From an uncultured Chloroflexia bacterium (GTDB taxonomy: Bacteria; Chloroflexota; Limnocylindria; Limnocylindrales; CSP1-4), in the NCBI GenBank assembly GCA_963752475.1, contig CAVVYR010000016.1, positions 1-14,548 of the forward strand: a DNA stretch of 14,548 nucleotides. The letters are read 5' to 3'. A program made the translations under genes and the position numbers. This document shows, piece by piece, positions 16 to 14,548 of this stretch. Each line of letters begins with the position of its first letter. Position 1 is the stretch's first letter. The notes below the pieces were generated by a model, which had not been told where the DNA came from, made no database searches, and saw only the letters and a program-made list of their open reading frames with translations.

Positions 16-936
16 TCAACTCATCGTATTGCTGATGAGCGAGATGAGCAGCACGCCCGCGAGGGTGCCCAGGATGGTGCCCCGGCCGCCCTTCAGGCTG
101 GCTCCGCCGATGATGACAGCGCTGATGGCGTCGAGGATGAGCAGGTCGCCGCCCATGCCCGAGGAGCCGGTGCCAAGGCGCGCGACGAGGGTCACGCCGG
201 CGAGTGCGGCTGCGAAGCCGGCGATGAGATAGGTGCTGAAGATGATGCGGTCGGTGGGGATGCCCGAGGCGCGTGCCGCGAGCGCATTTGTGCCGGTGGC
301 GTAGAGCATGCGGCCGTAGGCGGTGCGCTGCAGCAGCACGTAGGCCAGCACCGAGATCACGGCTACCGCGATGATGGGGATAGGCACCACGGAGCCGCTG
401 GCCGAGCCCATGCGGCGGAAGTCGCGCATGACCGGCCCGATGGTCACGCCCTTGGTGTACATGGCCGCGATACCGGTGGTCAGCACGAGCGTGGAGAGCG
501 TGACGATGAAGGGGGTCATCTTCACGCGTGCCACGGCCACGCCATTGAAGGCACCGAACGAAACGCCCACGGCGATCATGACGAGAACGCCCAGGAAGAT
601 GGCCTGTGACTGCACCAGCACATCTGCGCCGAGCACGCCACTCAATGCCAGCACACCCGCGAGCGACAGGTCGATGCCGCCACCGACGATGACGAAGGTC
701 TGGCCCAGGGCCATGAAGGCCACGACACACGACTGCAACAGCACGTTGGTCAGGTTCCGTACCGTGGCGAAGGCGGGGTTGGTGAGAGCTAGGACGATGG
801 CCACGATGGCCGCGGCGATCAGCGTCCAGCTGCTGTCGGCGCGTAACCAGCCCAGGATCAATGCCTGCCAGCGCGGTCGCGCGGCGATCGGCGAGTCGGC
901 TGCACTCATACGGCGTTGGGGCTTCGATCTCGTCAT
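16..936 (-). CDS. Sugar ABC transporter permease (RbsC-like, BPD_transp_2); C-terminus possibly truncated by an error
   Basis: Hydrophobic 306-aa ORF with family motifs GQTFVIVGGGIDLS, PFIVTL, YGRMLYATGTNALAARASGI and AISAVIIGGASLKGGRG. It stops at ...LISNTMS*, roughly one helix short of the paralogue at 2158-3192. Confidence 0.9.
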   Translation of the reverse strand: MTRSKPQRRMSAADSPIAARPRWQALILGWLRADSSWTLIAAAIVAIVLALTNPAFATVRNLTNVLLQSCVVAFMALGQTFVIVGGGIDLSLAGVLALSGVLGADVLVQSQAIFLGVLVMIAVGVSFGAFNGVAVARVKMTPFIVTLSTLVLTTGIAAMYTKGVTIGPVMRDFRRMGSASGSVVPIPIIAVAVISVLAYVLLQRTAYGRMLYATGTNALAARASGIPTDRIIFSTYLIAGFAAALAGVTLVARLGTGSSGMGGDLLILDAISAVIIGGASLKGGRGTILGTLAGVLLISLISNTMS

Positions 937-960
937 CCGATCCTCGTGTCGTGGAAGGAT

Positions 961-1001
961 CGCCGGGCGACCAGCACGCTCGTGCGCGCGGCCACCCGGC
1001 G
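961..1001 (-). terminator. GC-rich stem-loop downstream of the binding-protein gene (mRNA stabiliser or partial terminator)
   Basis: On the minus-strand RNA, CGCCGGGUGGCC (1001-990) pairs with GGUCGCCCGGCG (972-961): 12 bp including 2 G-U, plus an inner GCACG/CGUGC stem. No U-tract follows. Confidence 0.55.
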
Positions 1002-1020
1002 GTTCATCGGCGGCTAGCGA

Positions 1021-2040
1021 CTACTGCTCGACGTAGCCGTTGCCCCAGAAGGCGCTGCCCATCTCGAGGATGTTGTCGACCGTGCCGACGACGCCGGGCA
1101 GGGCGTTGAAGACGGGGTCGATCTCCTCGCAGGCGGCAAGTGTCAGGACGTTGTCCACTGGCATGCGCGCCCAGGCGATCGGGTCGTGCGCGATGTCGAC
1201 CGTGCTGTAGCCGTCCTGCAGGGACTTGGCGCCGTTCCCGTCGCCGTCGATCTGGGCCAGCATGATGTGGCCTTCCTCGCCGTAGGGCACGAGGCGGTCG
1301 TTTGTCTTGAGCGCCGACAGGACCGACGGCAGCAGGTAGTCAGAGGGGATGAAGATGGCGTTGATGTCCGGGTCGGCGTTGAGGGCGTTGGTCACCCCGT
1401 TGAGCGCCTTCTCGGGCTGCCACTCGGTAGGCACCTCGGCCACGATCTCGATGCCCAGTTCCTCGGCCACCTCGCGGAAGCCGGTGTCGCGATGGACCGC
1501 GTTGGGGTCGGTCAGGGCGCCGATGAGCGCCAGCACCTTGAGTTCGACGCCATCACGGTCGGCGAACTCCTTGAGCACTCGCGCGGCGTCCTTGCCGAAG
1601 GTGTAGTTGTCCGAGCCTACGAAGCTGGCCACGCCCTCCATCTCCGCCGGCGGCCGGTCGAAGAAGTGGATGGGCACGCCGCCCTCGTTGGCCGCGAAGA
1701 CGGACGTCAGGATGGCCTTGTCGTCGATGGGGTCGACGATGATGCCATCGACGCCTTGGGCCACGAGGTCCTCGATCTGGCCCGACTGCTTGTTGACGTC
1801 GTTGTCTGCCACGACCTCGACCAGTTCGAAGCCGAGCTCCTCCTGGTAGGCCTTGAGTTCTGCCTCGGTCACTTGCCACGTCGCGCTCATGAGCGACGGG
1901 AACGAGACGCCGATGGTGAGGTCGCTCGCATCACGCGGCGTGCAGTCCTCGGCCAGCACGGCGCCGGAGCCGACGGTCAGTGCGGCGCCCAATGCGAGCG
2001 CCACGCCGGCGCCCAGGGCCCTGTTCTTCCGGTTTGACAT
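1021..2040 (-). CDS. Sugar ABC transporter substrate-binding protein (RbsB-like, periplasmic binding protein type I)
   Basis: Signal peptide (basic N-terminus, hydrophobic core, AVLA|ED). Family motifs KQSGQIEDLVAQGVDGIIVDP, VGSDNYTFG and PDINAIF. SD AGGAGG upstream at about 2052-2057. Confidence 0.93.
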   Translation of the reverse strand: MSNRKNRALGAGVALALGAALTVGSGAVLAEDCTPRDASDLTIGVSFPSLMSATWQVTEAELKAYQEELGFELVEVVADNDVNKQSGQIEDLVAQGVDGIIVDPIDDKAILTSVFAANEGGVPIHFFDRPPAEMEGVASFVGSDNYTFGKDAARVLKEFADRDGVELKVLALIGALTDPNAVHRDTGFREVAEELGIEIVAEVPTEWQPEKALNGVTNALNADPDINAIFIPSDYLLPSVLSALKTNDRLVPYGEEGHIMLAQIDGDGNGAKSLQDGYSTVDIAHDPIAWARMPVDNVLTLAACEEIDPVFNALPGVVGTVDNILEMGSAFWGNGYVEQ

Positions 2041-2103
2041 TCTGCGTCTATCCTCCTGTGTGCCCGGAGCCGATGGAGCTAGCTTGCCTCTGGCCCGGGA
2101 CCC

Positions 2104-2139
2104 GGATCAGGCCCGTCCCTTCGTGGATGGGTCTGGTCC
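2104..2139. repeat. Imperfect 15-bp inverted repeat in the permease/binding-protein intergenic region
   Basis: GGATCAGGCCCGTCC (2104-2118), loop CTTCGT, GGATGGGTCTGGTCC (2125-2139). 12 Watson-Crick pairs plus 3 positions that are G-U on the plus strand. Confidence 0.6.
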
Positions 2140-2157
2140 ACCTCCGTATCGGATCGA

Positions 2158-3192
2158 TCAGGCGATACTCGGCGCGGTCACACCTCCTCCCTCTTCGGTC
2201 GTGCGGATCCGGCGCCCCTGCGCAGTACGGCGCCGGATGCGAATGGCGTCTGCGAAGACCGCGATGAGCATCACCGCGGCTCGGGCGATGGAGAACCAGT
2301 AGGGATCGGCGCCCGCGACGATGAGCCCGTTCTCGAGCATGGCCAGCATCAGCGCGCCGAAGAGCGTGCCGGGGATGATGCTGCCTTCGCCGCCGGCCAG
2401 GCTGGTACCGCCGAGGACGACCACGGTCACGGCTACGAACTCGGCGCCCAGGCCGGTGGCCGGATCGACCGTAGCCGAGCGCGAGAACCACATGACGCCG
2501 CCGATCGCCGCGGTCACCCCGCAGAGCACGTAGGCGATGGCCTTTGTGCGGTTGACGTTCACACCGCTGGCGATCGCGCCGCGCTCATTGCTGCCCACGG
2601 CCATGGCATGGCGACCGAAGGTGGTCTTGGACAGGATGAACTGGCCCGCGATAAGCACCAGGCCGCCCCAGATGATGGCCGTGGGGATGGGTCCCAGGTA
2701 GCCGGCGCCGAAGTCGTAGATGTGGTCGTCGTGGACCATCAGCGACGAGTTGTTGATGATGTACTGGCCGGTGCCGCGCAGCACGAACATCATGGCCAGC
2801 GTGGTGATCAGCGGGTTCACGCCCAGGCGTGTGATCGCGAGCGCGTTGACCAGGCCCACGACGGCGCCGATACCCATGGCGACCAGCAGCGCCAATGGGA
2901 TGGTCAGGATGTCGTTGAGGATGAGCTGCACGGCCACGGCCACGGCCACGAAGGCGGCCGAGCCGACCGAGATATCGATGCCGCCGGTGATGAGCACGAT
3001 GGTCAGGCCGGTGCCGATGATGGCCATGGGCATGGCCTGCATGGCGATGTTGCGCAGGTTCGCTGGTGCCAGGAACGTGCTCGGCTCGAGCAGGGCGAAG
3101 ACGAGGAACAGGGCCGCGAAGCTGACGTAGAAGCCGCGTGAGCGCAGGACCCCAAGGATGCGACTGCCGAACGTGCCTCCCATGGCCTCCAT
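2158..3192 (-). CDS. Sugar ABC transporter permease (RbsC-like)
   Basis: Motifs GLTIVLITGGIDISVGS, NPLITTLAM, FGRHAMAVGSNERGAIASGVNV and VVVLGGTSLAGGEG. The ATG at 3192 overlaps the reconstructed ATPase stop (TGATG). An alternative ATG lies at 3183. Confidence 0.93.
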   Translation of the reverse strand: MEAMGGTFGSRILGVLRSRGFYVSFAALFLVFALLEPSTFLAPANLRNIAMQAMPMAIIGTGLTIVLITGGIDISVGSAAFVAVAVAVQLILNDILTIPLALLVAMGIGAVVGLVNALAITRLGVNPLITTLAMMFVLRGTGQYIINNSSLMVHDDHIYDFGAGYLGPIPTAIIWGGLVLIAGQFILSKTTFGRHAMAVGSNERGAIASGVNVNRTKAIAYVLCGVTAAIGGVMWFSRSATVDPATGLGAEFVAVTVVVLGGTSLAGGEGSIIPGTLFGALMLAMLENGLIVAGADPYWFSIARAAVMLIAVFADAIRIRRRTAQGRRIRTTEEGGGVTAPSIA

Positions 3193-4691
3193 CAGCTACC
3201 GCCGGTCCCGTGGCGCAGGAGTTCCTCTTGGCTGGCATCGTCGGGGCGGATTCCTGCACCACCTCGCCCCGGCGCATGATCAGGATGCGATCGGCCAGCC
3301 GCATGATCTCCTCCATCTCCGAGGAGATGAGCAGGACCGAGGCGCCGGCCTCGGCCACGGCCAGGATGGTGCGTTGGATCTCGTCCTTGGCACCCACGTC
3401 GACGCCGCGCGTGGGCTCGTCGAGGATGTAGATGTCCGGACCGCGGGCGAGCCACTTGCCCAGCACCACCTTCTGCTGGTTGCCGCCGCTGAGGTTCTCG
3501 GCCTTGTGCTCGGGCCCCGAGGCGACGATACCGAGTCGGTCGATCTGCTCGCGCGCGATGGCCTCCTCACGCGAGCGCACGAGCCAGCCGATGGGCGTCC
3601 GCACCACGTTCTTGAGGCTGGCCATGGTCACGTTCTCACGCACGTTCATGCCCAGCACGAGCCCGTCATCGCGACGGTTCTCCGGTACGTAGCCGATGCC
3701 GGCTGCGATGGCCTTCGTGGGCTGCATGCGGTCGTGCAGCTGGCCTCGAACGGTGATCGTCCCACAGTCGGTCGGGTCGAGCCCGAAGATGGCCCGCGCC
3801 AGCTCACTGCGGCCAGAGCCGAGCAGACCCCAGATCCCGAGCACCTCGCCTTCACGCAACACGAACCGGACGTCCTCGATGTAGCCCTCGCGGGAGAGTC
3901 CCTCCACGCGCAGGGCCTCAGCCTCGCCGGGTGGCGTGGAGCGGCTGAGCGTGCTGCCGAGTGCGCGCCCGACCATCATGCGGATGACCTCGTCGTGGTT
4001 GGCCTCGCCTGTGTCCACGGTGCCCACGTTGCGGCCGTCGCGCATGACATTGATGCGGTCGGAGATCTTCGAAGATCTCGTTCATGAAGTGGGAGATGTA
4101 GATGACCGCCGTGCCGGCATCGCGCAGGCCGCGGATGACGGTGAAGAGCAGCTCGCGCTCGGCCACGGTCAGCGAGGAGGTGGGCTCATCGAAGATGATG
4201 AGCCGGACATCGTTAGAGAGCGCGCGGGCGATCTCGACCAGCTGCTGGTCGCCGATGGACAGGTCGCGCACGGGCGATCGCGCATCGACATGGACGCCCA
4301 GGCGTTCGAGGATCTCGGCCGCGTCATGCTCGATGCGCCGATGATCGACGAGGCCCAGAAGCTTGGGGTAGTTGCTGATGTAGATGTTCTCGGCCACCGT
4401 CAGCGACGGGCTCAGCGTCAGCTCCTGGTGGATGAAGGAGATGCCCGCGGCCTGCGCGTCGCGCGGGTTCGTGGGCGCGTACGCCTCGCCGCCGATGGTC
4501 ATCGTGCCGCTCTCCGCGGAAACCATCCCGCCGAGCACGTTCATGAGCGTGGACTTGCCCGCGCCGTTCTCGCCCACCAGCGCCAGCACCTCACCGCTTC
4601 GCGCCTCCAGGCTGACCTCGTCGAGTGCCTGGACACCACCGAACCGCTTGGACATGCGGTCCATGGCGAGAAGGGGAGCGGTGCTGGTCAT
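3192..4691 (-). CDS. Sugar ABC transporter ATP-binding protein (RbsA-like, two NBDs), broken by two single-base frameshifts
   Basis: Walker A GENGAGKS, LSIGDQQLVEIA, IIFDEPT and YISH in 4691-4070. After one extra base at about 4068 the frame continues FEISDRINVMRDG...LSGGNQQKV...ILDEPTRGVDVGAK...LISSEMEE. After one missing base at about 3251 it ends RPDDASQEELLRHGTGGS* at 3194-3192. Confidence 0.9.
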
Positions 4692-4724: not shown

Positions 4725-4964
4725 TCAGGTTTCCTCGTAGGTGGCCAGGACCGTGCCCACCTTCGCGTCGGTGCCGGCCTCGACAAGGATCTCGGTCAGG
4801 CGGCCGGTGGCCGGCATCTCCAGGTCCACGTTGGCCTTCTCGGTCTCGATCTCGGCGATGACCTCGCCTTCCATGACCGAGTCACCCACGGCCTTGAGCC
4901 AGCTGCTCACGCGGGCCTCGTCGGTCTCGGCCCCGAGGTTGGGCATCTTGATGGGCGTGCTCAT
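4725..4964 (-). CDS. Stand-alone lipoyl-domain protein (79 aa)
   Basis: IKMPNLG...WLKAVGDSV.EGEVIAEIETEKANVDLEMPATGRL..I....G....VGTVLA is a complete lipoyl domain with the acceptor Lys. Start placed at ATG 4964 because AGAGGAG lies just upstream; the ORF track start at 4982 overlaps the previous gene. Confidence 0.88.
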   Translation of the reverse strand: MSTPIKMPNLGAETDEARVSSWLKAVGDSVMEGEVIAEIETEKANVDLEMPATGRLTEILVEAGTDAKVGTVLATYEET

Positions 4965-4974
4965 GGCGCTCCTC

Positions 4975-7137
4975 TTAGTCATCCTTCCGGGCCGAAGAAA
5001 CGATGGCGGCGCGGATGTCGTCGTCCTGGATGTGTGTGAACGCCTCGAGCGGCTTGCTCACGGGCGAGTAGACATCGAGACCCGTGACCCGCAGCGGCGC
5101 CGTGCGCAGCAGCGCGTGTAGGTCGGGCTGCAGGTAGTCGAGCACCCGCGGGCCCATGGACAGCATGTGCTGGGCATCCTCGGCGATGACCAGGGCGCCG
5201 GTGCGCCCGACCGACTCGAGCACTGCCGCGCGCGGGAAGCTGGGCTCGTCGAGCCAGCGCGGGTCGATGACCTCGGCCTCGATGCCGCGTTCGGCCAGCT
5301 CGGCCACGACCTCGGCCACGCGCGTGGCGGCGTAGCCCCAGGTCAGCACGGTCACATCGCGCCCGGGCCGCACCAGCCGCGCCTTCCCGAACTCGACCAC
5401 GTGGTCGAAGCCGGCGCCCGGGAGCACACCCGTGGTCTTGGCCAGGCGATGGTCGTCGATGATGAGCACCGGGTCGCGACTGAGCACGGCCGCGTTCCAG
5501 CAGCCGACGTAGTCGGCCGGGGTGGTGGGCGCGGCCACGCGCCAGCCGGGATACGACGTGAAGAGGCCGGCCGGGTCGCAGGAGTGCTGCGGTCCATAGC
5601 CGCGCCCGCGAGCGATCTGCGTGCGCGCGATGACGGGCACCTCGTGGTCGCCGCCATACATGTAGCGGCTCTTGGCGATGTGGTTGAAGAGCTGGTCGGT
5701 GGCCTCGAGTACGAAGTCGGGGTACATGAACTCGATGATCGGATGCATGCCCGCGAGCGCCGCTCCCAGGGCTGCGCCACTGAAGCCGTTCTCGCAGATG
5801 GGCGTCGAGAGGAGCTGCTGCGGGCGCGAGGCCACGGCTGAACGGGTCATGCCCACCGTGCCGCCGCCGAGGTGGCCGACCTCCTCGCCCAGGTAGATGG
5901 CCTCTGGGTCACGCTCGAGCGTGCGACCGATGACGCCCTGCGCGGCCTCGGCGTAGGTGACCGGCGCAGCCTCAGGGTCCGGCGTCGCGTCGAGGCGCTC
6001 GTAAGGGAGGTCCGGGAGGCCCGGGCCGAGCATGCCGCGATGGGCGTCCTCGACCGGCGGGTAGAGCTCGGGCGGGATGGCTGGTCCGTCGTCGGTCTCG
6101 ACCGTCAGTGCCGCCACGCAGCGGGCCACGAGCGCGTTGGCCAGGCCCTGCACGTGCTGCACTTGCTCGGCACTGAGCAGCTCGGCCTCGATCACGCCGC
6201 GAGGCCAGGCGACCGCTGGGTCGCGACCCTTCCATTCGCGCTCCTCGTCCTTGCTGCGGTACTTGAAGGCCGAGCCGGGGAGGGGACCGTTCTGGTGGTA
6301 GTAGCGGTAGGTGATGGCTTCGACGAAGATCGGCCCGTGCGTGACCGCATGCTCGCGTGCCTGAGCCATCGCCTCGTACACCGCCACCGGGTCCATGCCG
6401 TCGACCACGAGCGCGGGCATGTCGTAGCCCGCGGCCCGTTTGGCCAGGCGTGTGAAGCCGGCCGTCTCCTGCACGGTGGTAGCGACCGAGTACTGGTTGT
6501 TCTCCAGCAGCAGGATGAGTGGCAGATCCCATGCCCGCGCCAGCGCCGCCGCTTCGTGGAAGGAACCGATCTGGCTGGCGCCGTCACCGAAGGAGGCCAC
6601 GCCCACGTCGCCCGTGCCGCGCAGCTTGGAGGCCAAGGCGTAGCCGCCCGCTGGCGGGATACCGCCACCGACGATGGCCGTGGTCATCACGCCACCGGCT
6701 CGGTCCCAAAGGTGCATCGAGCCGCCGCGGCCGTGGCAGAGCCCTTGTTCGAGGCCCATGATCTCAGCCATCGTTCGCTGCACGGGGTCGGCCATGGCCT
6801 CGGTCACCGTCTCGGCGGTGAAGGGGTCGAAGTCATCCGGGGTGGCCGAGAGCAGCAGCTTGGCCACCACGTCGTGATGGGCGCGGTGGGTCGAGGTCAG
6901 CCAGTCACTCGGGCGCAGGGCCAGGGCCGCGCCCGTGGCCGTGGCCTCCTGGCCGATGCTCGAGTGCAGCGGTCCGTGCACCAGGCCCGCGTTGTCGAGC
7001 AGCCACTTCTCGAAGCGACGGATGGTCCCGATGCTGAGGATGGCCAGCCCCAGGCGGCGCTTGGGCGTGCCGGCGAGCACGTCCGTGGACAGCTCGTAGC
7101 GGGTGAGGTCGGGTGCCGTCGTCGGCTCTGCGGTCAT
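4975..7137 (-). CDS. ThDP-dependent 2-oxoacid/acetoin dehydrogenase-like E1, alpha-beta fusion (720 aa)
   Basis: Alpha part: HSSIGQEA, STHRAH, GRGGSMH and the ThDP motif GDGA...ENN. Beta part: LGEEV, TPICENG, EFMYPDF, GPQHS, GRDVTV and EVIDPRWL. Uninterrupted frame; SD GGGGGAG. Confidence 0.92.
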   Translation of the reverse strand: MTAEPTTAPDLTRYELSTDVLAGTPKRRLGLAILSIGTIRRFEKWLLDNAGLVHGPLHSSIGQEATATGAALALRPSDWLTSTHRAHHDVVAKLLLSATPDDFDPFTAETVTEAMADPVQRTMAEIMGLEQGLCHGRGGSMHLWDRAGGVMTTAIVGGGIPPAGGYALASKLRGTGDVGVASFGDGASQIGSFHEAAALARAWDLPLILLLENNQYSVATTVQETAGFTRLAKRAAGYDMPALVVDGMDPVAVYEAMAQAREHAVTHGPIFVEAITYRYYHQNGPLPGSAFKYRSKDEEREWKGRDPAVAWPRGVIEAELLSAEQVQHVQGLANALVARCVAALTVETDDGPAIPPELYPPVEDAHRGMLGPGLPDLPYERLDATPDPEAAPVTYAEAAQGVIGRTLERDPEAIYLGEEVGHLGGGTVGMTRSAVASRPQQLLSTPICENGFSGAALGAALAGMHPIIEFMYPDFVLEATDQLFNHIAKSRYMYGGDHEVPVIARTQIARGRGYGPQHSCDPAGLFTSYPGWRVAAPTTPADYVGCWNAAVLSRDPVLIIDDHRLAKTTGVLPGAGFDHVVEFGKARLVRPGRDVTVLTWGYAATRVAEVVAELAERGIEAEVIDPRWLDEPSFPRAAVLESVGRTGALVIAEDAQHMLSMGPRVLDYLQPDLHALLRTAPLRVTGLDVYSPVSKPLEAFTHIQDDDIRAAIVSSARKDD

Positions 7138-7156
7138 GGTGCTCCCCCTGCTGGGC

Positions 7157-7435
7157 TCAGGCGATGGTCTCGGGGATCTCGTCGGGCATGGCCTCGCCAG
7201 GCGCGAGGATGACCGCGATCACGGTGTTGTTGGGCACGATGTCGCCCTCGCCGTGGACGATCTTCGCGAGCACGCCGGCCGCGGTCGCCTCCAGCTCCAC
7301 GGTGGCCTTGTCGGTCTCGACCTCCACGACGGGCTGACCCTTGCTGACGCTGTCACCCTCGGACACGAGCCAGGAGACGATCTCGCCCTCCTCCTGGTTC
7401 ATGCCCAGCTTCGGCAGTGGGAAGAACGTGGCCAT
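7157..7435 (-). CDS. Stand-alone lipoyl-domain protein (92 aa)
   Basis: LPKLG..QEEGEIVSWLVSEGDSVSKGQPVVEVETDKATVELEATAAGVLAKI with canonical ETDKA, then a short acidic tail and a stop. SD AAGGAGG. No acyltransferase domain follows. Confidence 0.92.
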   Translation of the reverse strand: MATFFPLPKLGMNQEEGEIVSWLVSEGDSVSKGQPVVEVETDKATVELEATAAGVLAKIVHGEGDIVPNNTVIAVILAPGEAMPDEIPETIA

Positions 7436-7456
7436 CGGTGTTGGACCTCCTTCGCC

Positions 7457-8425
7457 TCAGCGGCCGACGGCAGCGAGGACGGTTCGTTCGATGCGGGCCT
7501 CGTCGGGGATGACGAGGGCCTCGAGTGCGCGGTTGTAGGGCATGGGCACGTCGAGCCCGGCCACGATGCGCGGCTGCTCCTTGATCAGCTCGAAGCCGCG
7601 CTCCACGACCTGGGAGACGATCTCCCCGCCGATGTTCGAGCGCCGGTTGGCCTCGTGGACCACGACCAGTCGGCCGGTCTTCTCGAGAGAGGCCAGGACG
7701 GTGTCGTAGTCGAAGGGATAGACGGTGCGCGGGTCGATGACCTCGCACTCCACCCCTTCAGCCGCGAGCCGCTCGGCCGCGGCCATGGCCTTGTGACGCA
7801 TGATGCTGATGGCCACGACGGTGACGTCATCGCCCTCGCGGACGACATCGGCCTGACCGAAGGGGATGGTGTATTCCTCGACCGGCACCTCGCCCTTGAT
7901 CTCGTAGCCACGCTTGTGCTCGAAGAAGAGCACCGGATCATCACTGCGGATGGCCGTGCGCAGCAGGCCCTTCACGTCGGCCGGGGTCGAGGGCATGACG
8001 ATCTGCAGGCCGGGCACGGCGCTGAACCAGTTCTCGAACGACTGGCTGTGCTGTGCCGCCTGCCCGCCGCCGGCGCCGACCGGGGCGCGGATGACCAGGG
8101 GCACGCTGATGGCGCCACCGAACATGTAGCGGATCTTGGCGATCTGGTTGACCAGCTGGTCCATGCCGATGGTGATCCAGTCGCTGAAGAGGATCTCGGC
8201 GATGGGTCGCAGGCCGGTGGCCGCGGCACCCAGTGAGCTGCCCACGATGGCGGCTTCACTGATGGGCGTGTCCAGCACGCGCTGCGGCCCGAACTCCTCG
8301 TACAGCCCCTTGGTCACGCCGAAAGGGTTGCCGCGCACGCCCACGTCGCAGCCGAGGATGATGACCGTGGGGTCACGCTGCATCTCCTCGCGCAGCGTCT
8401 CGTTGATGGCGCGCTTGACGTTCAT
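7457..8425 (-). CDS. Pyruvate/acetoin dehydrogenase-like E1 beta subunit (AcoB/PdhB family)
   Basis: AINETLREEMQRDP, GCDVG, RVLDTPISEAAIVG, DQLVNQIAKIRYMFGG, AAQHSQS, DDPVLFFEHK and EVIDPRT. Start is uncertain: in-frame ATG at 8425, or ATG at 8463 (ATGA overlap with the alpha stop) if one further base is missing near 8453. Confidence 0.9.
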   Translation of the reverse strand: MNVKRAINETLREEMQRDPTVIILGCDVGVRGNPFGVTKGLYEEFGPQRVLDTPISEAAIVGSSLGAAATGLRPIAEILFSDWITIGMDQLVNQIAKIRYMFGGAISVPLVIRAPVGAGGGQAAQHSQSFENWFSAVPGLQIVMPSTPADVKGLLRTAIRSDDPVLFFEHKRGYEIKGEVPVEEYTIPFGQADVVREGDDVTVVAISIMRHKAMAAAERLAAEGVECEVIDPRTVYPFDYDTVLASLEKTGRLVVVHEANRRSNIGGEIVSQVVERGFELIKEQPRIVAGLDVPMPYNRALEALVIPDEARIERTVLAAVGR

Positions 8426-8459
8426 GCGGCGGGGCTGGACCTCGGCGCTGGTGTGGCCG

Positions 8460-10297
8460 TCATCGGCCGATCCCCTGCTGCTCCATGAACTCGTCGGAGT
8501 AGAGCCCGTCGTAGAGCGTGTCGAGCTCCGGTTGTGGTGCGGCCTTGGCGAAGGCGATGGCGTCCTCGACGCGCGCCGCGGCGGTCTCATCGGCTTCGTC
8601 GAGCCAGCCTTCGTCCGCTGCCCGGACTCCAGCAGGAACCCACCCAGGCGGTCGATGGGGTCGAACTGCTGCCAGCGCTCGTTGCACTCGAGGTCGCGGT
8701 AGGCCTCGTCATCGGCCACGAAGTGCCCGATGTAGCGGTAGAAGCGGGCCTCGATGAGCGTGGGACCGCCGCCGGCGCGTGCACGCTCGGCGGCCTCTGC
8801 CACCGCGTCGTGGACGGCGATGGCGTTGAAGCCGTCGACGGTCACGCCGGGGATGCCGTAGCCCACGGCGCGGTCGGCCACCGAGGGGTTGCCGACGGCC
8901 TGCTCGTAGGGCATGGAGATGGCCCACTGGTTGTTCTCGCAGAGGAAGATGACCGGTAGCTCCCAGGCTGCGGCGAGGTTGATCGACTCGTGCCACACAC
9001 CCTGGTTGGTGGCGCCGTCGCCGTGGAAGCAGACGGTCACGAAGTCCTGGCCCAGGGTCTTGGCCGTGAGCGCTGAACCGACCGCGATGGGCATGGCCGA
9101 GCCCACGATGCCGGTGGCGCCGAGCATGCCCATGTCGACCGCGGCGATGTGCATGGAGCCGCCCTTGCCCTTGTTGTAGCCGGGTGCGCGGCCCATGAGC
9201 TCGGCCATCATGCGCCGCGGGTCGCCGCCCTTGGCGATGGTGTGGCCGTGGCCACGGTGGGTGCTGGTGATGTAGTCGCCGTCGCGCAGCGCCGTGCAGG
9301 CCCCCACGGCGATGGCCTCGGCGCAGACGTAGGAGTGGGCCAGGCCGTAGATGAAGTCCTGCTTCCACAGCTCCTTGACCGCGCTATCGAACTCGCGGAT
9401 GAGGCGCATGCGCCCGTACATCTTGAGCACGTCGGCCGGGAGCGCCTCCGAGATGACCAGCGGCGTGAGCGTGTCGCGCTCGAAGGCAGCGACCGCGTCG
9501 CGTTCTCCTCGACCGTGATGCGGTGCCGCGTCTGATGCCCGCAGTTCGATGACCTGGCCCGGCTCGGGCGCGACCACGGTCGGCTGCCATTCACCGGCCG
9601 CCGTGTGCGCCTCCATCAGCTTGAGGAAGGCCTGCACGTCGGGATGGCTGGGCCACTGGTAGTGACTGGCGATGACGTGCTTCAGCCCCAGCCACTGGCT
9701 GGCCATGACCGCCTCTTGCACGTTGACCTCGCCGCCACGGTAGACCTCGAAGTGGGGCAGCGAGTCTTCCGGCAGGGCCACGACCATGAGCCCGTGCGTG
9801 GGCCGGTACAGCTCCCCGAATAGGCGGAAGTCGTAGGAGATCGCCGAGTCGCCCTGGTGGTAGAGGCGCACGCCGGGTCCGGCGTCGACGACGAAGCCCA
9901 TGGCCGGGCCACTGAGCAGCTCGCCGCCGGGCGTGACCGAGAAGGACCAGTGGTGGCTCTCGACGGGGTGGACCGGCACGCCTGCGACGGTCATGGGGAT
10001 GCCCCAGATGGTGACGCGGATCTGGTCGGGGTCGACGCCGCGGACGGTGGTCAGGTTGTGGGCCACGTCCTTGGCGCAGATGACCGGGCACTTGTCGCGC
10101 TTGAGGATCTCGGCGGCTTCGCCCTGGTGGTCGTAGGCGGCATGGGTGACCAGCACCAGGTCGACCTTTTCGAGGTCGTGCCAGGAGAGGGGACAGGCGG
10201 GATTCGAGTCCATGTACGGGTCCATCACGACCCGCGTCCCAGCCTCGGTCACGAGCTCGTAGCCCGCGGTGCCGAAGAACCGAAGTGTCGCCGTCAT
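8460..10297 (-). CDS. Fusion of an MBL-fold metal-dependent hydrolase (UPF0173/UlaG-like, about 255 aa) and an E1 alpha subunit (AcoA/PdhA family); one frameshift near 8622
   Basis: ATG 10297 with SD AAGGAG. Hydrolase motifs LRFFGTAG, VVMDPY, THAAYDH, YHQGDS and IASHY. E1-alpha motifs STHRGHGH, GKGGSMH, GDGA...ENN and YRYIGH. Restoring one G in the run at 8621-8623 gives a typical alpha C-terminus (...VEDAIAFAKAAPQPELDTLYDGLY...*) ending at 8460. Confidence 0.8.
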
Positions 10298-10365
10298 GAG
10301 CCGCTCCTTGCTGTCCTCGGGCGCCAGGCCTGCTCGCGTCCGCTGCGCCGATCGTCGGGCTGTTC

Positions 10366-10380
10366 GATTGTAGTACAATC
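10366..10380. promoter_or_regulatory. Predicted GntR/FadR-type operator overlapping back-to-back -10-like hexamers
   Basis: Perfect inverted repeat GATTGTA-G-TACAATC, an AT-rich island in the divergent intergenic region. The core TTGTAGTACAA fits the FadR-subfamily pattern t.GTa.tAC.a. TACAAT reads on both strands. Confidence 0.8.
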
Positions 10381-10420
10381 CTACGACGCAAGTCCAGCAT
10401 CGAGGACCGACAGCGGATCG

Positions 10421-11129
10421 ATGAGCATGGAACAGGCGACGCTCGACCGGCCACCCAGCCTCACCGACGCGGTCGTGGCCCACATCCGCGACGGCATCAT
10501 CCGCGGGGCCTACACGCCCGGCCAGCCGCTGACCGAGGCCCAGCTGTCAGACGAGCTGGGGACATCGCGCGGTACGGTTAGGGAGGCGCTGCGGGTGCTG
10601 GCCGGCCTGGGTCTGGTCGAGCGCTCGGCGCATCGCGGCGCGGCGGTCTCGCGGCTCACGGCCAAGCGGGCCGAGGAGATCTACACGCTGCGCGCGTCGC
10701 TGGAGTCGTTGGCGGCGCAGCTGGCCGTGGAGCGCGGGCATCTCGACGAGGCCGCGCTGGCGTTGCTTGCGACCCACGTGGACGCCATCGAGCATGCTGC
10801 CCGGCGCGATCGACCTGCAGGGCATGGTGCACGCGGACATCGACTTCCACCGAGCCCTCTCGGCCTACTCGGGCCACGACCTGCTGATGGAGCACCTCGA
10901 CGCCATCCAGGTGCACAGCCGTCGGCTGCTCTTCTACAGCGACCTCTACCAGCCCGAGCCGGAGCTGGTCGTGCGTCGCCACCGCGAGCTCCTGCGGGTG
11001 TTGCGCTCCGGCGACGCGTACGCGGTGGCCAGCGCCATCGACGAGCACATCAGCGGTCCGGGCCGGGACATCGTGGAGAAGATGCTCGCGCGCGAGCAGG
11101 ACGGGGAGGGGACCGATGAAGACGCGTGA
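10421..11129 (+). CDS. GntR-family (FadR/FCD) transcriptional regulator; one frameshift near 10805-10811
   Basis: wHTH IRDGIIRGAYTPGQPLTEAQLSDELGTSRGTVREAL and EIYTLRASLE. After removing one base the frame continues with the FCD signature DIDFHRAL...SGH...H..LL..LRSGD...HI, which is the ORF-track 10767-11129 frame. Confidence 0.9.
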
Positions 11130-11901
11130 CCTGAGTGGGCTGTTCTCGCTGGCCGGCAGGAGCGCCATCGTCACCGGCGGTGGCTCGGGCCTGGGCCTGG
11201 CCATGGCCGAGGCCTTCGCCCAGTACGGCGCGGCCGTGGCGGTCGTCGACCTCGACGAGGCCGCCGCGAGCGAGGTGGCGCGTGACATCGAGGCTGCCGG
11301 CGGACGAGCCGTCGCGATCGGCTGTGATGTGGCCGACCAGGCGCAGGTGGAGTCGGCCGTGGCCGCGGCGCGGAGGACCTCGGGCGACATCCACGTGCTC
11401 GCGGCCAACGCCGGGGTCGGCGACCGTGCGCCGGCCGAGGAGATGACCCTCGAGCAGTGGCAGCGCGTGCTCGACATCAACCTCTCCGGCGCCTGGTACT
11501 TCGATCAGGCCGTGGGCCGGCACATGATCGAGCGCGGCATCGCCGGCTCCATCATCAATACCTCTTCGATCACCAGTCTCGTGGGCATCACCACCGGCAA
11601 CGCCAACTACGCCGCTACCAAGGGCGGGCTCAACGCGCTCACGCGCACGCTGGCCATCGAGTGGGCAGGCCATGGCATCCGCGTCAACGCCATCGCCCCC
11701 ACGCACGTCAAGACCGCGCTCATCGAACAGAAGATGGCCGAGGATCCGGCCCTCGCGGACTTCTTCCTGGGCAACATCCCGCTCGGCCGACTGGGTGAGC
11801 CGGAGGACATCGCGGCTGCCGCCATCTACCTCGCCTCTGACGCTGGCGCGCTCGTCACCGGGCATGTGCTGGTCGTCGACGGCGGCCACACCGCGCGATG
11901 A
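11116..11901 (+). CDS. Classical short-chain dehydrogenase/reductase (gluconate 5-dehydrogenase/KduD-like)
   Basis: LFSLAGRSAIVTGGGSGLG, Asp at the end of beta-2 (VVDLD, NAD-type), NAG, catalytic YAATK, IRVNAIAP and VDGG. SD GGGGAGG. Confidence 0.93.
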   Translation: MKTRDLSGLFSLAGRSAIVTGGGSGLGLAMAEAFAQYGAAVAVVDLDEAAASEVARDIEAAGGRAVAIGCDVADQAQVESAVAAARRTSGDIHVLAANAGVGDRAPAEEMTLEQWQRVLDINLSGAWYFDQAVGRHMIERGIAGSIINTSSITSLVGITTGNANYAATKGGLNALTRTLAIEWAGHGIRVNAIAPTHVKTALIEQKMAEDPALADFFLGNIPLGRLGEPEDIAAAAIYLASDAGALVTGHVLVVDGGHTAR

Positions 11902-12936
11902 ACGGCCCCGACATGGTTCGGGCGCTGCACATCACGGGGCCGGACCGCTTCGGCATCGTCGAGAAGGTGCGACCCGAGCCTGGTCCCGGGTGCAGCCTCG
12001 CCGCGCCTGCCTATGTCGGCCTCTGTGGCACCGACCTCGACCTCTTCGATGGCTCCATGCCCTATTTCGCCGAAGGCGTGGCCACGTATCCGCTGCAACC
12101 CGGCCATGAGTGGTCGGGCAGGCTGCTCGAGGCGAACGATGAACTGGCGGCGGGCACGCGCATCATCCTCGACGCGGTCATCGACTGCGGCCGGCCTGAC
12201 TGCGAGCTGTGCACGGCCGGCCTGGTGGTGCGCTGTCAGGAGCGCTTCGAGTTCGGCGTGCGCAAGGGCCTTGACGGCGCCCTGGCCACGGCCGTGTCGG
12301 CACCCGATCGCTACATGCTGCCGGTGCCCCAGGGCGTTCGTCTCCGCGATGCTGCCTTGGTCGAGCCGATGGTGACCACGCTCGAGGGCATCAAGCGGAC
12401 GGCGCCGGTGCCGGGCGAAGAGGTGCTCATCGTGGGCTCGGCCACGCTCGGCCTGGCCGGCGCCATGATCCTCGCCGCACGCGGCATCCGCACACACGTG
12501 CTGCTGCGCAACGAGACGCGCACCGAGACGGTGGAGGCGACCGGGGCCATCCCCTGGCTGTTCGGCACCCGCGCCGCCGTGGAGCGCTTCGACGTGGTGC
12601 TCGAGGCGGCCGGCACGCCGTCGGGGGTGCAGGCGGCCCTGGCACACGCCGCGGCCGGTGCGCGGGTGGCGCTGCTGGGCGTGCCCACGGAACCGGTACC
12701 CATCGACATCGGCAACCTGGTCATCCACGACATCACCGTCCAGGGCGTGCTCAACGGCCCCGGCCAATACCCCCATGGCCTGGCCGCGACTCGCCTCGGG
12801 CGAGGTCAAGCCGGAGCTGCTCATCGACCGGGTCTTCCCCTTCGATGAGATCGAGGCCGCCGTGGCGCGCTCGCGAGAGCCCGGCCGTGCCCGGCCCAAG
12901 GTCCTCGTACAGGTCGACCCCGAGGCGCCCGAGTAG
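11898..12936 (+). CDS. Zn-dependent medium-chain dehydrogenase (sorbitol/threonine dehydrogenase-like); one frameshift at about 12789
   Basis: GLCGTD, GHEWSG, structural Zn cluster CGRPDCELC...C, AALVEP and DVVLEAAG. Removing the extra A at 12789 gives LAALASGEVKPELLIDRVFPFDEIEAA...KVLV, ending TAG 12936. ATGA overlap with the SDR. Confidence 0.88.
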
Positions 12937-12971
12937 CCAGAGCGGACGTCAATCCCAAGGAGGCCATGCAC

Positions 12972-14050
12972 GTGAGCGACCACTACTTCGAGCGGGTCCG
13001 CGCCGAGACCGGCGGCCGTTTCTGGGTCAACAACCCCACGAGCGAGGAGATGGACCTGGCACTGGCCTCCGGGGCCATGGGTTGCACGACCAACCCCGGC
13101 TACGGCGGCAACCTCGTGCAACGGGTACCCGAGGAGGTCCTGCCCGTGGTGCGCGCGTGCCTGGCCGAGTCGGACGACGACGAGGTCGTGGCCGAGCTCG
13201 TGCAGGAGCAGCTCGTCGGGCGCATCTGCGAGCGCTTCGCGCGCCTGTACGAAACGAGCGAAGGCCGGGAGGGCTTCGTCTCCATCCAGGGTGCCCCAGA
13301 GCGAGACACCGAGGCCTCGAACATCATCGAGGCCAGCCGTCGCGCCCGCGCCATCGCGCCCAACGCCACACCCAAGATCCCGGCCACGCTACCGGGGTTC
13401 GAGGCGTTCGAGGAGAACGTGCGGGCCGGTCGGCAGTCCATCGCGACCGAGGTCTTCAGCGTGGCCCAGGTCATCGAGACCTGCGAGCGCTACCTCGCGG
13501 TGACTGCCGAGACCGGGGTACGCCCACCCTTCTTCATGAGCCCCATCACCGGCATCCTCGGCGACCACTTCAAGAAGCTTGCGGCACGTGATGGGCTGGA
13601 CGTGCCCGTCGAAGCCATGGAGGCGGCCGGCGTCATCGTGGCACGGGCCTGCTACGCGGTGGTGCACGAGCGTGAGTACCCCGTGACCCTGCTCTACGGC
13701 GGCGCGCGAACCGAGCTTGATTTCGCCGGCCTCATCGGTGGCGGCATGGCCGCGACCATCAACTGGTCGACCGCCTCCGAGCTCATCGAGCACGACCCGC
13801 CTGCCCGTATGAGCGTCACCGATGCGCCCGATTCCGAGGTCGTGCAGGTGCTGACCGAGGCCTTCGACGAGATGCGTCAGGCCCTCGATCCCGGCGGTCT
13901 GCCGCCGAGGACTTCGAGGAGTTCGGCCCGGTCCTGCACTTCCGCGACGCCTTCATCGATGGCTGGAACGGCGTGCGCGCGATGATCGGTGACGTGCGTG
14001 CCGGGAACCCACGAAGCCGTGCTGACGGCGATGCCGGAGCACGCCGCTGA
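12972..14050 (+). CDS. Transaldolase/FSA-family protein with a divergent active site; one frameshift near 13901-13907
   Basis: GCTTNP, GFVSIQ, Schiff-base KIPAT and TEVFSVAQ. Adding one base near 13902 yields the tail EDFEEFGPVLHFRDAFIDGW...RR*, ending TGA 14048-14050. GTG 12972 is preferred over ATG 12966 because SD AAGGAGG (12957-12963) is 8 nt from the GTG but only 2 nt from the ATG. Confidence 0.82.
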
Positions 14051-14271
14051 TGCTCGAGGGCTTCGCGCCACCGCCGGTCACGCAGCTGCGCATGCGCGAC
14101 CGCGACATGCGGCATCCGCTGATGGTCTCGGAGGACGGGATCGACGTGGTCTCGGAAGCTCCGCCGTCCGAGGCCTTGGCGTCCGGGCACGACATCGAGC
14201 TGGCCGCGGGTGTCGAGTGCATGCGGGTCGAAGAAGCCACACTAGAGACTAGGGAGGTCGAGAGATGGTGA
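14050..14271 (+). CDS. Small hypothetical protein (73 aa) or gene remnant
   Basis: TGATG-coupled to the reconstructed transaldolase stop and overlaps the next start, so it fills the gap exactly. No confidently recognised domain. Confidence 0.35.
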   Translation: MLEGFAPPPVTQLRMRDRDMRHPLMVSEDGIDVVSEAPPSEALASGHDIELAAGVECMRVEEATLETREVERW

Positions 14272-14548
14272 CCGGATGGGAGATCGCAGTCGAAGCTGCC
14301 GACCTGCTCGGCGAGGGCCCCGCTTGGGAGGCATCCCGGGCGTCGCTGCTGTGGACCGACATCGCCGGGCGGCGGATCCACCGGCTCGACCCGGCCAGCG
14401 GTGAGGTCTGGACTCGCGGACTCGACCAGATGGCAGGGGCCGTGTTGCCGCGTGCGCGCGGCGGGTTGGCCCTTTGCCTGCAGGACGGTGTCTACCTCAC
14501 CGACGACGACGAGGGGGAGCCATGCCTGCTCGCGCCGATCGAGCCCGA
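14265..14548 (+). CDS. SMP-30/gluconolactonase/LRE-family lactonase, 3' end cut by the window edge
   Basis: Not in the ORF track; translated by hand: MVTGWEIAVEAADLLGEGPAWEASRASLLWTDIAGRRIHRLDPASGEV..., matching the LGEGPxW...LxWxDI...IHRxDP signature. SD GGAGG at 14253-14257. Confidence 0.9.
   Translation, partial: MVTGWEIAVEAADLLGEGPAWEASRASLLWTDIAGRRIHRLDPASGEVWTRGLDQMAGAVLPRARGGLALCLQDGVYLTDDDEGEPCLLAPIEP

Follow-up and report, generated by a model that had tools for sequence, protein, structure and literature searches.

A conserved sugar/polyol locus with two E1 enzymes and free lipoyl proteins in an uncultured Limnocylindrales bacterium: a putative unbundled, acetoin-dehydrogenase-like lipoate system

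Introduction

Lipoate-dependent dehydrogenases are the textbook giant complexes constructed on a core of E2 (acyltransferase) subunits. The locus described here raises the question as to how enzymes of that class might operate when the swinging arm is encoded as a free protein and no core gene lies at hand, which question concerns contig CAVVYR010000016.1 (hereafter C16) from the assembly GCA_963752475.1 of an uncultured Chloroflexia bacterium (Limnocylindria; Limnocylindrales; CSP1-4). The window that we analyzed is the whole of that contig (14,548 bp), and in it lie two E1-type enzymes of the class dependent on thiamine diphosphate (ThDP) along with two small lipoyl proteins, here called Lip1 and Lip2. 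The genome bin to which the contig belongs comprises 4.25 Mb in 38 contigs, at 88.8% completeness and 5.8% contamination. Our preferred reading, to which we assign a rough probability of 0.55 and which we base on sequence comparison, is that the locus specifies an unbundled acetoin-dehydrogenase-like lipoate system within a GntR-controlled sugar/polyol locus, in which system a ketol derived from a sugar or a polyol would be cleaved onto free carriers that are serviced in trans.

Results

Gene Order and Domain Content

A Pfam scan of the 16 main open reading frames (ORFs) of the window placed on the minus strand, in this order, a metallo-beta-lactamase (MBL)-fold hydrolase, E1 alpha, E1 beta, the 92-aa Lip1, a fused E1 alpha-beta (E1ab), the 79-aa Lip2, and an ATP-binding-cassette (ABC) transporter of the CUT2 type, which order is the one that the original prediction, made from the letters of the DNA, had put forward. 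Several of these genes could be compared with a second copy of the locus, located on contig C6 of the same bin and 94.7% identical over window positions 4978–14006. The members of the two putative modules are the following:

9536..10297, minus strand: MBL-fold hydrolase, UPF0173-like, with HxAxDH for HxHxDH (Lactamase_B_2, 4.8e-16; a separate 288-aa gene in C6)
8460..9534, minus strand: E1 alpha, the ThDP-binding subunit of module 1 (E1_dh, 1.1e-78; tblastn match in three pieces to the 359-aa C6 gene)
7457..8424, minus strand: E1 beta of module 1 (Transket_pyr, 4.7e-42; Transketolase_C, 1.9e-36; 97% identical to the C6 E1 beta, residues 11–336)
7157..7435, minus strand: Lip1, free 92-aa lipoyl carrier with the motif ETDKAT (Biotin_lipoyl, 6.5e-21)
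4975..7137, minus strand: fused E1 alpha-beta of 720 aa, module 2 (a single ORF with E1_dh, Transket_pyr, and Transketolase_C; the C6 copy is 96% identical)
4725..4964, minus strand: Lip2, free 79-aa lipoyl carrier with the motif ETEKAN (Biotin_lipoyl, 3.3e-19)

The gaps between the minus-strand genes are of 21, 19, about 10, and 33 nt, in agreement with the earlier statement that all were shorter than 40 nt. Among the 16 ORFs the scan found no E2 catalytic domain (PF00198), no peripheral-subunit-binding domain (PF02817), and no domain of E3, the dihydrolipoamide dehydrogenase; furthermore, PF00198 was found neither on C16 nor at the C6 locus, and PF02817 was not found among the C6 ORFs scanned. 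The predicted lack of an E2 core and an E3 from the block thus holds for the window and also for 13 of the 15 two-module relatives described below.

The E1 Enzymes and the Free Lipoyl Proteins

PF00676, PF02779, and PF02780 were each detected twice, once in the split and once in the fused E1, and the translations of both enzymes display GDG...NN stretches, which we take to be the ThDP motif. The fused E1 is 36% identical to the canonical fused E1 of the same genome. When NCBIfam models were scored against their curated cut-offs, the best models for the E1s were equivalogs of the pyruvate dehydrogenase (PDH) E1, and the scores lay below the cut-offs; the automatic names that the homologues bear in their sources are mixed, namely pyruvate, acetoin (acetoin:DCPIP oxidoreductase), or 2-oxoisovalerate dehydrogenase E1.

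As to the small proteins, PF00364 was found twice, and Lip1 and Lip2 are accordingly assigned, from their sequences, as lipoyl domains with a lipoyl-lysine motif. The DKA and EKA motifs of the lipoyl type are visible, and the lipoyl models of E2 and AcoC rank far above the biotin carriers in NCBIfam, on which two grounds we rejected the candidate assignment of these ORFs as biotin carriers. The best NCBIfam match of Lip1 is the lipoyl part of AcoC (4.2e-23), the match to that model (NF011457) being confined to residues 6–80 of 372. Each gene has its own stop codon and its own Shine–Dalgarno-like site—AGGAGG before position 7435 for Lip1 and AAGAGGAG before the ATG at 4964 for Lip2—just as had been claimed. 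The start that the ORF finder gave for Lip2 (4982) is probably too early and 4964 the likely one, yielding 79 aa, because of the Shine–Dalgarno site in front of that ATG and because the orthologue in locus L038 has 79 aa as well. Both ORFs stop after 79–92 aa, and the next gene begins 19–33 nt away. We consider that the two are genuine conserved genes and not truncation debris, as originally proposed: the ETDK motif of Lip1 was invariant in all 12 orthologues, and the substitutions that separate the window from its second copy are biased to the third codon position. An 820-aa database protein (P0144; 81% identity over 58% of the query) combines PF00364 with the three E1 domains and could be either a natural lipoyl–E1 fusion or a read-through of adjacent genes.

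Spread of the Modules

Among 8000 scored candidates, 5560 database relatives of the fused E1 were found. A relative is encoded at 243 loci of the genome collection (loci designated L; genomes, G), 80 of which we examined by mapping their six-frame ORFs with the window proteins, the genome's own E2 cores, and its E3; the nearest named relatives came from metagenome-assembled genomes (MAGs) labelled Chloroflexia or Candidatus Limnocylindrales. The fused E1 was present in 66 of the 80 by a simple rule and in 64 by a stricter one, the other 14 being ordinary loci with a split E1 and a full-length E2 (Dehalococcoidia and others). The full two-module layout of MBL, E1 alpha, E1 beta, Lip1, and fused E1 occurs in 15 loci, all in Chloroflexota, and Lip2 follows the fused E1 in 14 of these; none was detected in L043, whose fused E1 is in pieces. 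Of the 64 loci that pass the stricter rule, 40 have a gene for a short-chain dehydrogenase/reductase (SDR) no more than 3 kb from the fused E1.

A lipoyl gene is found within 3.5 kb of the fused E1 in 30 of the 66 loci. Five of those 30 (L038–L042) have an E2 core directly after Lip2, two (L058, L082) a canonical full-length E2, and three, of proteobacterial origin (L061, L064, L068), a protein of the AcoC type with lipoyl, E3-binding, and alpha/beta-hydrolase domains, whereas in the remaining 20 there is no E2-like gene beside the lipoyl gene. The pair E1ab–Lip2 also occurs by itself, without module 1, in L040–L042 and L044; the modules being thus separable, an obligatory two-step cleavage is not indicated, and the earlier idea of a cleavage in two ThDP steps is weakened, while the glycolyl and ketose chemistry suggested with it is conjectural.

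In Actinomycetota and Rubrivirga the order is SDR, free lipoyl protein (79–81 aa), GFO/IDH/MocA oxidoreductase, Amidohydro_2, fused E1, GntR/FCD regulator, and APH-family kinase, with lactonase-like genes nearby and no E2. Two loci titled Bifidobacterium breve (L048, L049) carry the same cluster of SDR, lipoyl, GFO, Amidohydro_2, and fused-E1 genes as do MAGs of Nanopelagicales and freshwater Actinomycetota, and that species label looks doubtful. Other settings were also met: in L029 (G007:C52, 707–11751) the fused E1 and Lip2 follow a ROK-family gene by themselves, with a fused permease–ATPase CUT2 gene, a GDSL hydrolase, a GNAT gene, a GntR/UTRA regulator, a BadF-type kinase, and a SIS-domain gene as neighbours, which context looks like one of amino-sugar use; and in an Actinomycetota MAG (L045:3162–6219), where no lipoyl gene lies near the fused E1, a few kb of upstream sequence separate it from a split transketolase pair and a cytochrome P450.

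The E2 Core: Split off, Possibly Lost, or Encoded Elsewhere

The original prediction had named as an alternative that homologous loci would normally carry a full-length E2, which proved to be true in part: the basal relatives L038–L042, whose E1 is about 65% identical, do encode an E2 catalytic core directly after Lip2, as a separate ORF of 239–242 aa in which the DHRAVDG motif is kept. In L038 the 79-aa Lip2 ends at 11400 and the 242-aa core (11393–12121) starts at 11393, an overlap of 8 nt; in L041 Lip2 likewise overlaps the 239-aa core (11358–12077) by 8 nt. Neither of these two cores contains a lipoyl domain or a PF02817 binding domain. The best 4 of the 150 listed library representatives of the stand-alone core are of 223–264 aa, with 50–60% identity, and 22 of the 150 do not exceed 270 aa, the rest being full-length E2s at 37–50% identity. 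The core gene in L038–L042 implies that some lineages of the family, at least, make acyl-coenzyme A (acyl-CoA).

We built a quick tree from 55 rows of the fused E1, with SH-aLRT support and the canonical fused E1 of the genome as outgroup; 14 loci with an E1 match that was broken up or did not reach 640 residues were omitted. The Chloroflexota form a clade of 15 rows (SH-aLRT 100), with the five lipoyl-plus-core loci on its basal branches, and nested within it is the window subclade of 9 rows (SH-aLRT 100), all with a free lipoyl gene. The sister clade contains 7 rows from Actinomycetota and Rubrivirga, with a free lipoyl gene in 6 and a core in none; the whole clade holding the window (SH-aLRT 99) has a free lipoyl gene in 21 of its 22 rows. 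Since the core loci are basal and the core-less subclade is nested, the state of the window looks like a loss of the stand-alone core gene within its own subclade, with which scenario the tree fits.

No E3 was found in the window, and none of the 80 loci matched the genome's own E3 used as the query. The search of the genome for E2 and E3 that the original prediction had called for thus gave nothing on the contig, while elsewhere it returned five PF00198 matches—three kinds of full-length E2, one of them beside the canonical fused E1—along with an E3 (C19:60484–62037), which adjoins an E2, and a LipA (C19:64854–65714) that scored over its cut-off. Those three kinds of E2, the E3, and LipA make a service in trans possible.

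A Second Copy and an Apparent Fusion

In the window, the MBL, E1 alpha, and E1 beta genes share one open frame of 1008 aa (7457–10483), which circumstance had led to the claim of a hydrolase–E1 alpha fusion. That claim was not borne out. Contig C6 encodes the three proteins by individual genes of 288 aa (MBL), 359 aa (E1 alpha), and 336 aa (E1 beta), MBL overlapping E1 alpha by 4 nt and E1 alpha overlapping E1 beta likewise by 4 nt; the nearest homologues in the database are separate too, all 120 E1 alpha homologues among the matches listed being unfused and of 316–366 aa. A global alignment of the two copies revealed 11 indel events over 9 kb, of which 10 were not multiples of three, and four of them create the joint frame: at 9533 (2 nt), 9497, 8622, and 8442 (4 nt). 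The 2-nt insertion at 9533 removes the MBL stop codon, and the 4-nt deletion at 8442 leaves the start of E1 beta in the window uncertain. The first 12 and the last about 50 residues of the window E1 alpha are consequently out of frame, and its true C-terminus can be read in another frame, where it matches the 358-aa database homologues. A search among longer proteins for natural fusions of MBL and E1 alpha found none, although such a search constitutes weak evidence. From the separate C6 genes, the unfused homologues, and the out-of-frame ends we conclude that the fusion is an artefact of the indels; those out-of-frame ends of E1 alpha likewise ruled out a genuine three-part protein of MBL, E1 alpha, and E1 beta.

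Further indels affect the regulator (10327, 10811), the Zn-dependent alcohol dehydrogenase (Zn-ADH; 12133, 12294, 12790), and the transaldolase-like gene, which last diverges from C6 after 14006; E1ab, Lip1, and the SDR gene are free of them, as are the MBL and E1 beta genes apart from their ends. Counted by codon position, the differences from C6 are 20/16/94 in E1ab (94 of 130 in the third position; 80 synonymous versus 31 non-synonymous codons) and 5/4/35 in E1 beta. Loci of other long-read MAGs from the clade (L035, L099) are equally fragmented. In view of that third-position bias, the lengths of the homologues, the failure to find any longer form of the MBL protein, and the equal fragmentation of L035 and L099, we read the indels of the window as consensus errors of a low-quality strain-variant contig and not as decay.

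Three observations stand apart. The ATPase gene of the CUT2 transporter (2585–4691, minus strand) is split over three frames by breaks near 4045 and near 3200, its C-terminal ...EELLRHGTGGS lying in another frame; these breaks are outside the stretch common to C6, so that there is no intact copy for comparison. In C6, an IS110-family transposase gene (L026:7208–8608, plus strand, equivalent to G000:C6 about 353200–354600; 466 aa, DEDD_Tnp_IS110 and Transposase_20) is inserted between the fused E1 and Lip2 and separates that Lip2 from its E1. Finally, the canonical locus of a fused E1 with a 484-aa E2 is present three times at near-identical scores (C10:1188–4573, C19:469–3830, C27:583–3952), which triplication, along with the pair of C6 and C16, suggests that the bin mixes closely related strains.

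The MBL-Fold Protein

Among proteins of known structure, the MBL protein comes closest to the UPF0173 hydrolases TM_1162, 7e3v, and 6hrg (Igni_1254), at E-values from 6e-17 to 4e-10, with which it shares the same Pfam families. It differs from them in scoring 103.7 bits against the NF001911 cut-off of 144 and in bearing Ala for the second His of the HxHxDH motif (THAAYDH in the window, at 10100–10160). The HxAxDH form was present in 24 of 24 rows (L030–L057, L111–L118)—17 linked to E1 and 7 of homologues at 33–45% identity—so that the exchange is found in every E1-linked member, whereas HGHxDH was kept in 21 of 21 ordinary UPF0173 rows from Chloroflexota. Matches at E <= 1e-15 occur in 137 of 401 sampled genomes of the phylum, the own genome and G204 being counted, while MBL homologues of 40–69% identity occur in seven genomes only; at the seven loci examined, E1 genes lie beside the MBL gene in one (L111) and a Zn-ADH-like gene in three. 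The protein at the head of the operon is, to judge from its conservation, an accessory of module 1 with an altered metal motif and a lineage-specific companion of that module, and it may equally belong to the sugar branch.

The Sugar Context

The rest of the window comprises the transporter, the divergent intergenic region, and the genes of the plus strand:

16..4691, minus strand: CUT2-type sugar ABC transporter (ABC_tran, BPD_transp_2, Peripla_BP_4), composed of the ATPase with two frameshifts, a permease at 2158–3192, the binding protein at 1021–2040, and a permease at 16–936
10367..10396, minus strand: promoter-like site ahead of the MBL gene, in the intergenic region between the divergent arms (one sigma-70-like consensus match versus 0.4 expected in shuffles)
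10328..11129, plus strand: frameshifted regulator of the GntR/FCD family, oriented away from the E1 operon (its GntR and FCD domains fall in two frames; intact in C6, with 268 aa)
11116..11901, plus strand: SDR-family dehydrogenase (adh_short_C2, 1.3e-64)
11898..12936, plus strand: Zn-dependent alcohol/polyol dehydrogenase, frameshifted (ADH_N, ADH_zinc_N)
12966..14005, plus strand: transaldolase/FSA-like protein, frameshifted; 424 aa in C6 (TAL_FSA, 2.3e-15)
14265..14546, plus strand: beginning of an SMP-30/gluconolactonase-like gene, which ends at the contig edge (SGL, 2.3e-15)

The regulator, the SDR, the Zn-ADH, the transaldolase-like gene, and the CUT2 importer support the sugar setting that had been proposed. 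The SDR falls within the glucose 1-dehydrogenase subfamily of NCBIfam above the cut-off, the models for GolD/DthD, gluconate 5-dehydrogenase, and BudC remaining below theirs; the Zn-ADH gave weak matches, below the cut-offs, to PRK10083 and to the scyllo-inosose 3-dehydrogenase IolM; and in the transaldolase-like protein the lysine of PKIPAT aligns with IKVPAT of the solved transaldolases.

Cotranscription of the E1 operon with the CUT2 genes, another element of the original prediction, is plausible in this contig, where the gap between Lip2 and the ATPase is 33 nt and contains no terminator-like site; the arrangement is nevertheless not shared, as CUT2 genes follow Lip2 in 0 of 19 related Chloroflexota loci. 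In 9 of those 19, a CUT2 binding protein and ATPase, 28–45% identical to those of the window, come after the transaldolase-like gene, on which count the importer is a conserved member of the locus, though one that resides on the divergent arm. In C6, G014, and G027 the operon ends at Lip2, facing convergent CUT1 genes.

Discussion

A Possible Route

We propose that the SDR and the Zn-dependent dehydrogenase would act on an imported compound and oxidize it to an alpha-hydroxy-ketone or a diketone, and that the split alpha/beta E1 and the fused E1 would then cleave next to the carbonyl, each one reductively acylating its own carrier, Lip1 or Lip2. The assignment of one carrier to each E1 derives from the domain content and from the conserved pairing of the genes. 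The carriers lie outside any E2 core, and the transfer of the acyl group and the re-oxidation of the dihydrolipoyl group would be left to enzymes encoded elsewhere, the likeliest helpers being the housekeeping E2s—of three kinds—and the C19 E3 in the present lineage, and the dedicated stand-alone core in the basal relatives.

Acetoin dehydrogenase (AcoA/AcoB, AcoC, AcoL) offers the nearest model. Both systems have a heteromeric ThDP E1 of the PDH/Aco type, the lipoyl domains here best match the lipoyl part of AcoC, an SDR partner is present as in the oxidation of butanediol to acetoin, and a few distant members of the fused-E1 family (L061, L064, L068 only) adjoin AcoC-type proteins. The differences are nonetheless considerable: in the window the lipoyl domain is a free protein of 79–92 aa with neither a binding nor a catalytic domain, there is no E3 gene at the locus, two E1s occur in tandem with one of them fused, the E1 alpha equivalog scores stay below the cut-offs, and the context is one of sugars or polyols and not of butanediol. 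With the canonical 2-oxoacid dehydrogenase complexes the system shares the E1 domains and the type of lipoyl domain, and the stand-alone core found in the sister lineages has the same fold as the E2 core of those complexes, at 34–38% identity. Here, however, the E2 is dismantled: the lipoyl domain is separate, the core is a separate ORF in the basal relatives and absent at the window locus, and, as the block has no peripheral-subunit-binding domain, no stable multienzyme particle would be expected.

Several observations weigh against this proposal. An orthologue of the stand-alone core was found neither in the own genome, where the best matches were full-length E2s at 30–38% identity, nor in five close relatives that possess the block, and a housekeeping E2 that offers these E1s no place to dock would depend on the carrier reaching it by diffusion. 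Moreover, G014 (78% complete) and G031 (84% complete) have neither a PF00198 match nor the strong E3 of three sister genomes, which pattern hints at an E2-independent operation as much as at incomplete assemblies. Within the fused-E1 family, 36 of the 66 loci lack a nearby lipoyl gene—8 of these 36 ending within 700 nt of the E1 gene—and the family therefore is not always in need of a dedicated carrier. Finally, if the 10 frame-breaking indels in 9 kb were real, the copy in the window would be defective.

Alternatives to a Service in Trans

The principal rival holds that the unloading is independent of CoA, the acyl-dihydrolipoyl carrier being discharged to a free acid or a lactone by a hydrolase, which here would be the HxAxDH MBL protein, or by self-lactonization; we hold this to be a rather unlikely, though serious, alternative. 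It would agree with the fact that 13 of the 15 two-module loci, like the actinobacterial sister clade, have no E2 core, and with the genomes G014 and G031 just mentioned. Hydrolases, moreover, lie beside the E1 or lipoyl genes in several groups: the MBL gene, which overlaps E1 alpha by 4 nt in C6; Amidohydro_2, which directly precedes the fused E1 in 3 of 3 loci checked by Pfam (L046, L048, L051); and the alpha/beta-hydrolase domain fused to the lipoyl and peripheral-subunit-binding domains in L061, L064, and L068. The distinct motif of the MBL clade, 24 of 24 against 21 of 21, points in the same direction, as does a weak NCBIfam match of the MBL protein to hydroxyacylglutathione hydrolase (7.5e-6, far below the cut-off). 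Nevertheless, L038 and L039 have both the MBL gene and the E2 core; the tie between MBL and E1 is limited to one family, and the homologue loci—1 of 7 with E1 and 3 of 7 with a Zn-ADH-like gene—fit a role in the sugar branch as well, for instance as a lactonase; the lost metal ligand may mean that the protein is not a hydrolase at all. Nor do the nearest solved relatives help, their function being unclear: Igni18 is described as promiscuous and the physiological role of the UPF0173 family as unclear in the part of PMC7846560 drawn on here. Were that rival correct in full, we would be faced with a CoA-independent burning of sugars, in which a ketol or a diketone is cleaved, the thioester is held on a diffusible lipoyl protein, and discharge by hydrolysis or self-lactonization gives a free sugar acid plus reducing power, an extension that we put forward as speculative and on balance doubtful. 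Hydrolases would then have been recruited convergently (the HxAxDH MBL; Amidohydro_2 in Actinomycetota; the alpha/beta-hydrolase in Proteobacteria), and the split-E2 relatives would represent an intermediate stage in the dismantling of the classic complex.

Much less credit is due to the view that the window is a decaying pseudogene cluster, with ordinary E1 paralogues of pyruvate, acetoin, or branched-chain oxoacid dehydrogenases and lipoyl ORFs that are leftovers of decayed E2s, an account that we consider improbable despite the frame-breaking indels, the two breaks in the ABC ATPase, the transposase inserted in C6, and the automatic names of the E1s as pyruvate, acetoin, or 2-oxoisovalerate dehydrogenases. 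For in all the orthologues seen, the lipoyl genes have kept their start, their Shine–Dalgarno site, their stop, and the lipoyl lysine; the substitutions bear the mark of purifying selection, and E1ab, Lip1, the SDR gene, and the bodies of the MBL and E1 beta genes are free of indels; the equal fragmentation of L035 and L099 points to errors of consensus; the scores for the PDH E1 equivalogs are below the cut-offs; and the genome possesses separate canonical loci with a fused E1 and a full-length E2. A biosynthetic role, finally, with a ketose phosphate as the donor of a C2 glycolyl unit for the assembly of a natural product, we judge to be highly improbable. Its appeal lies in the chemistry of the Qnc (QncN/QncL/QncM) and Scl (SclQ1-4) systems, where, according to the sections of PMC6335953 relevant here, a ThDP E1-like enzyme moves a C2 unit of a ketose onto a lipoyl group, with the same combination of E1-like enzymes and lipoyl groups. 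The same sections of PMC6335953 describe the lipoyl domain of those systems as joined to an acyltransferase domain and as partnered by an acyl carrier protein (ACP). Neither that acyltransferase–lipoyl fusion nor the ACP and nonribosomal-peptide-synthetase (NRPS) context of Qnc, as far as those sections describe them, is present here; the ORFs scanned in the window, C6, G014, G027, and G007 contained no domain of an acyltransferase, an ACP, an NRPS, a polyketide synthase (PKS), or a phosphopantetheinyl transferase, and the neighbours are transporters, dehydrogenases, and a GntR regulator.

Known Counterparts and Significance

The closest parallel in architecture would be archaeal. In 2007 van Ooyen and Soppa reportedly found an unattached lipoyl domain in an operon of Haloferax volcanii. 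In those oadh operons E1 alpha, E1 beta, and a free lipoyl ORF are said to be adjacent, with no E2 or E3 in the operon, a likeness of architecture; unlike the present locus, they belong to an archaeon, comprise one module, and lack a fused E1, an MBL gene, and a sugar locus. The substrates of the Haloferax E1-plus-lipoyl operons are still unknown according to the pertinent part of PMC8305020. The Pelobacter genome paper gives another lipoyl carrier, LarG, which is GcvH-like and unrelated to Lip1 or Lip2. Our search of the literature found no paper on a catabolic module of a bacterial E1 and a free lipoyl carrier, on the split E2, or on the fused-E1 family.

What emerges is a conserved set of genes that encodes the swinging arm as a protein of its own, together with one protein family within which the core occurs as a full-length E2, as a bare split-off catalytic protein, as a hydrolase-fold replacement, or not at all. 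The tandem pair of modules, the fused-E1 family with its range of E2 states, the apparent nested loss of the split core, and the HxAxDH subfamily of MBL proteins are the elements that are new here. If the carriers are loaded and unloaded as proposed, the locus would constitute a new layout for lipoate biochemistry and, were the proposal true, a hitherto unrecognized step in the non-phosphorylative breakdown of sugars or polyols by abundant bacteria of soil and freshwater—the Limnocylindria and the freshwater Actinomycetota. Under that same supposition, the family would supply a series of natural cases in which to follow the disassembly of multienzyme complexes, and it would give a handle on the function of the E1-plus-lipoyl operons of Haloferax.

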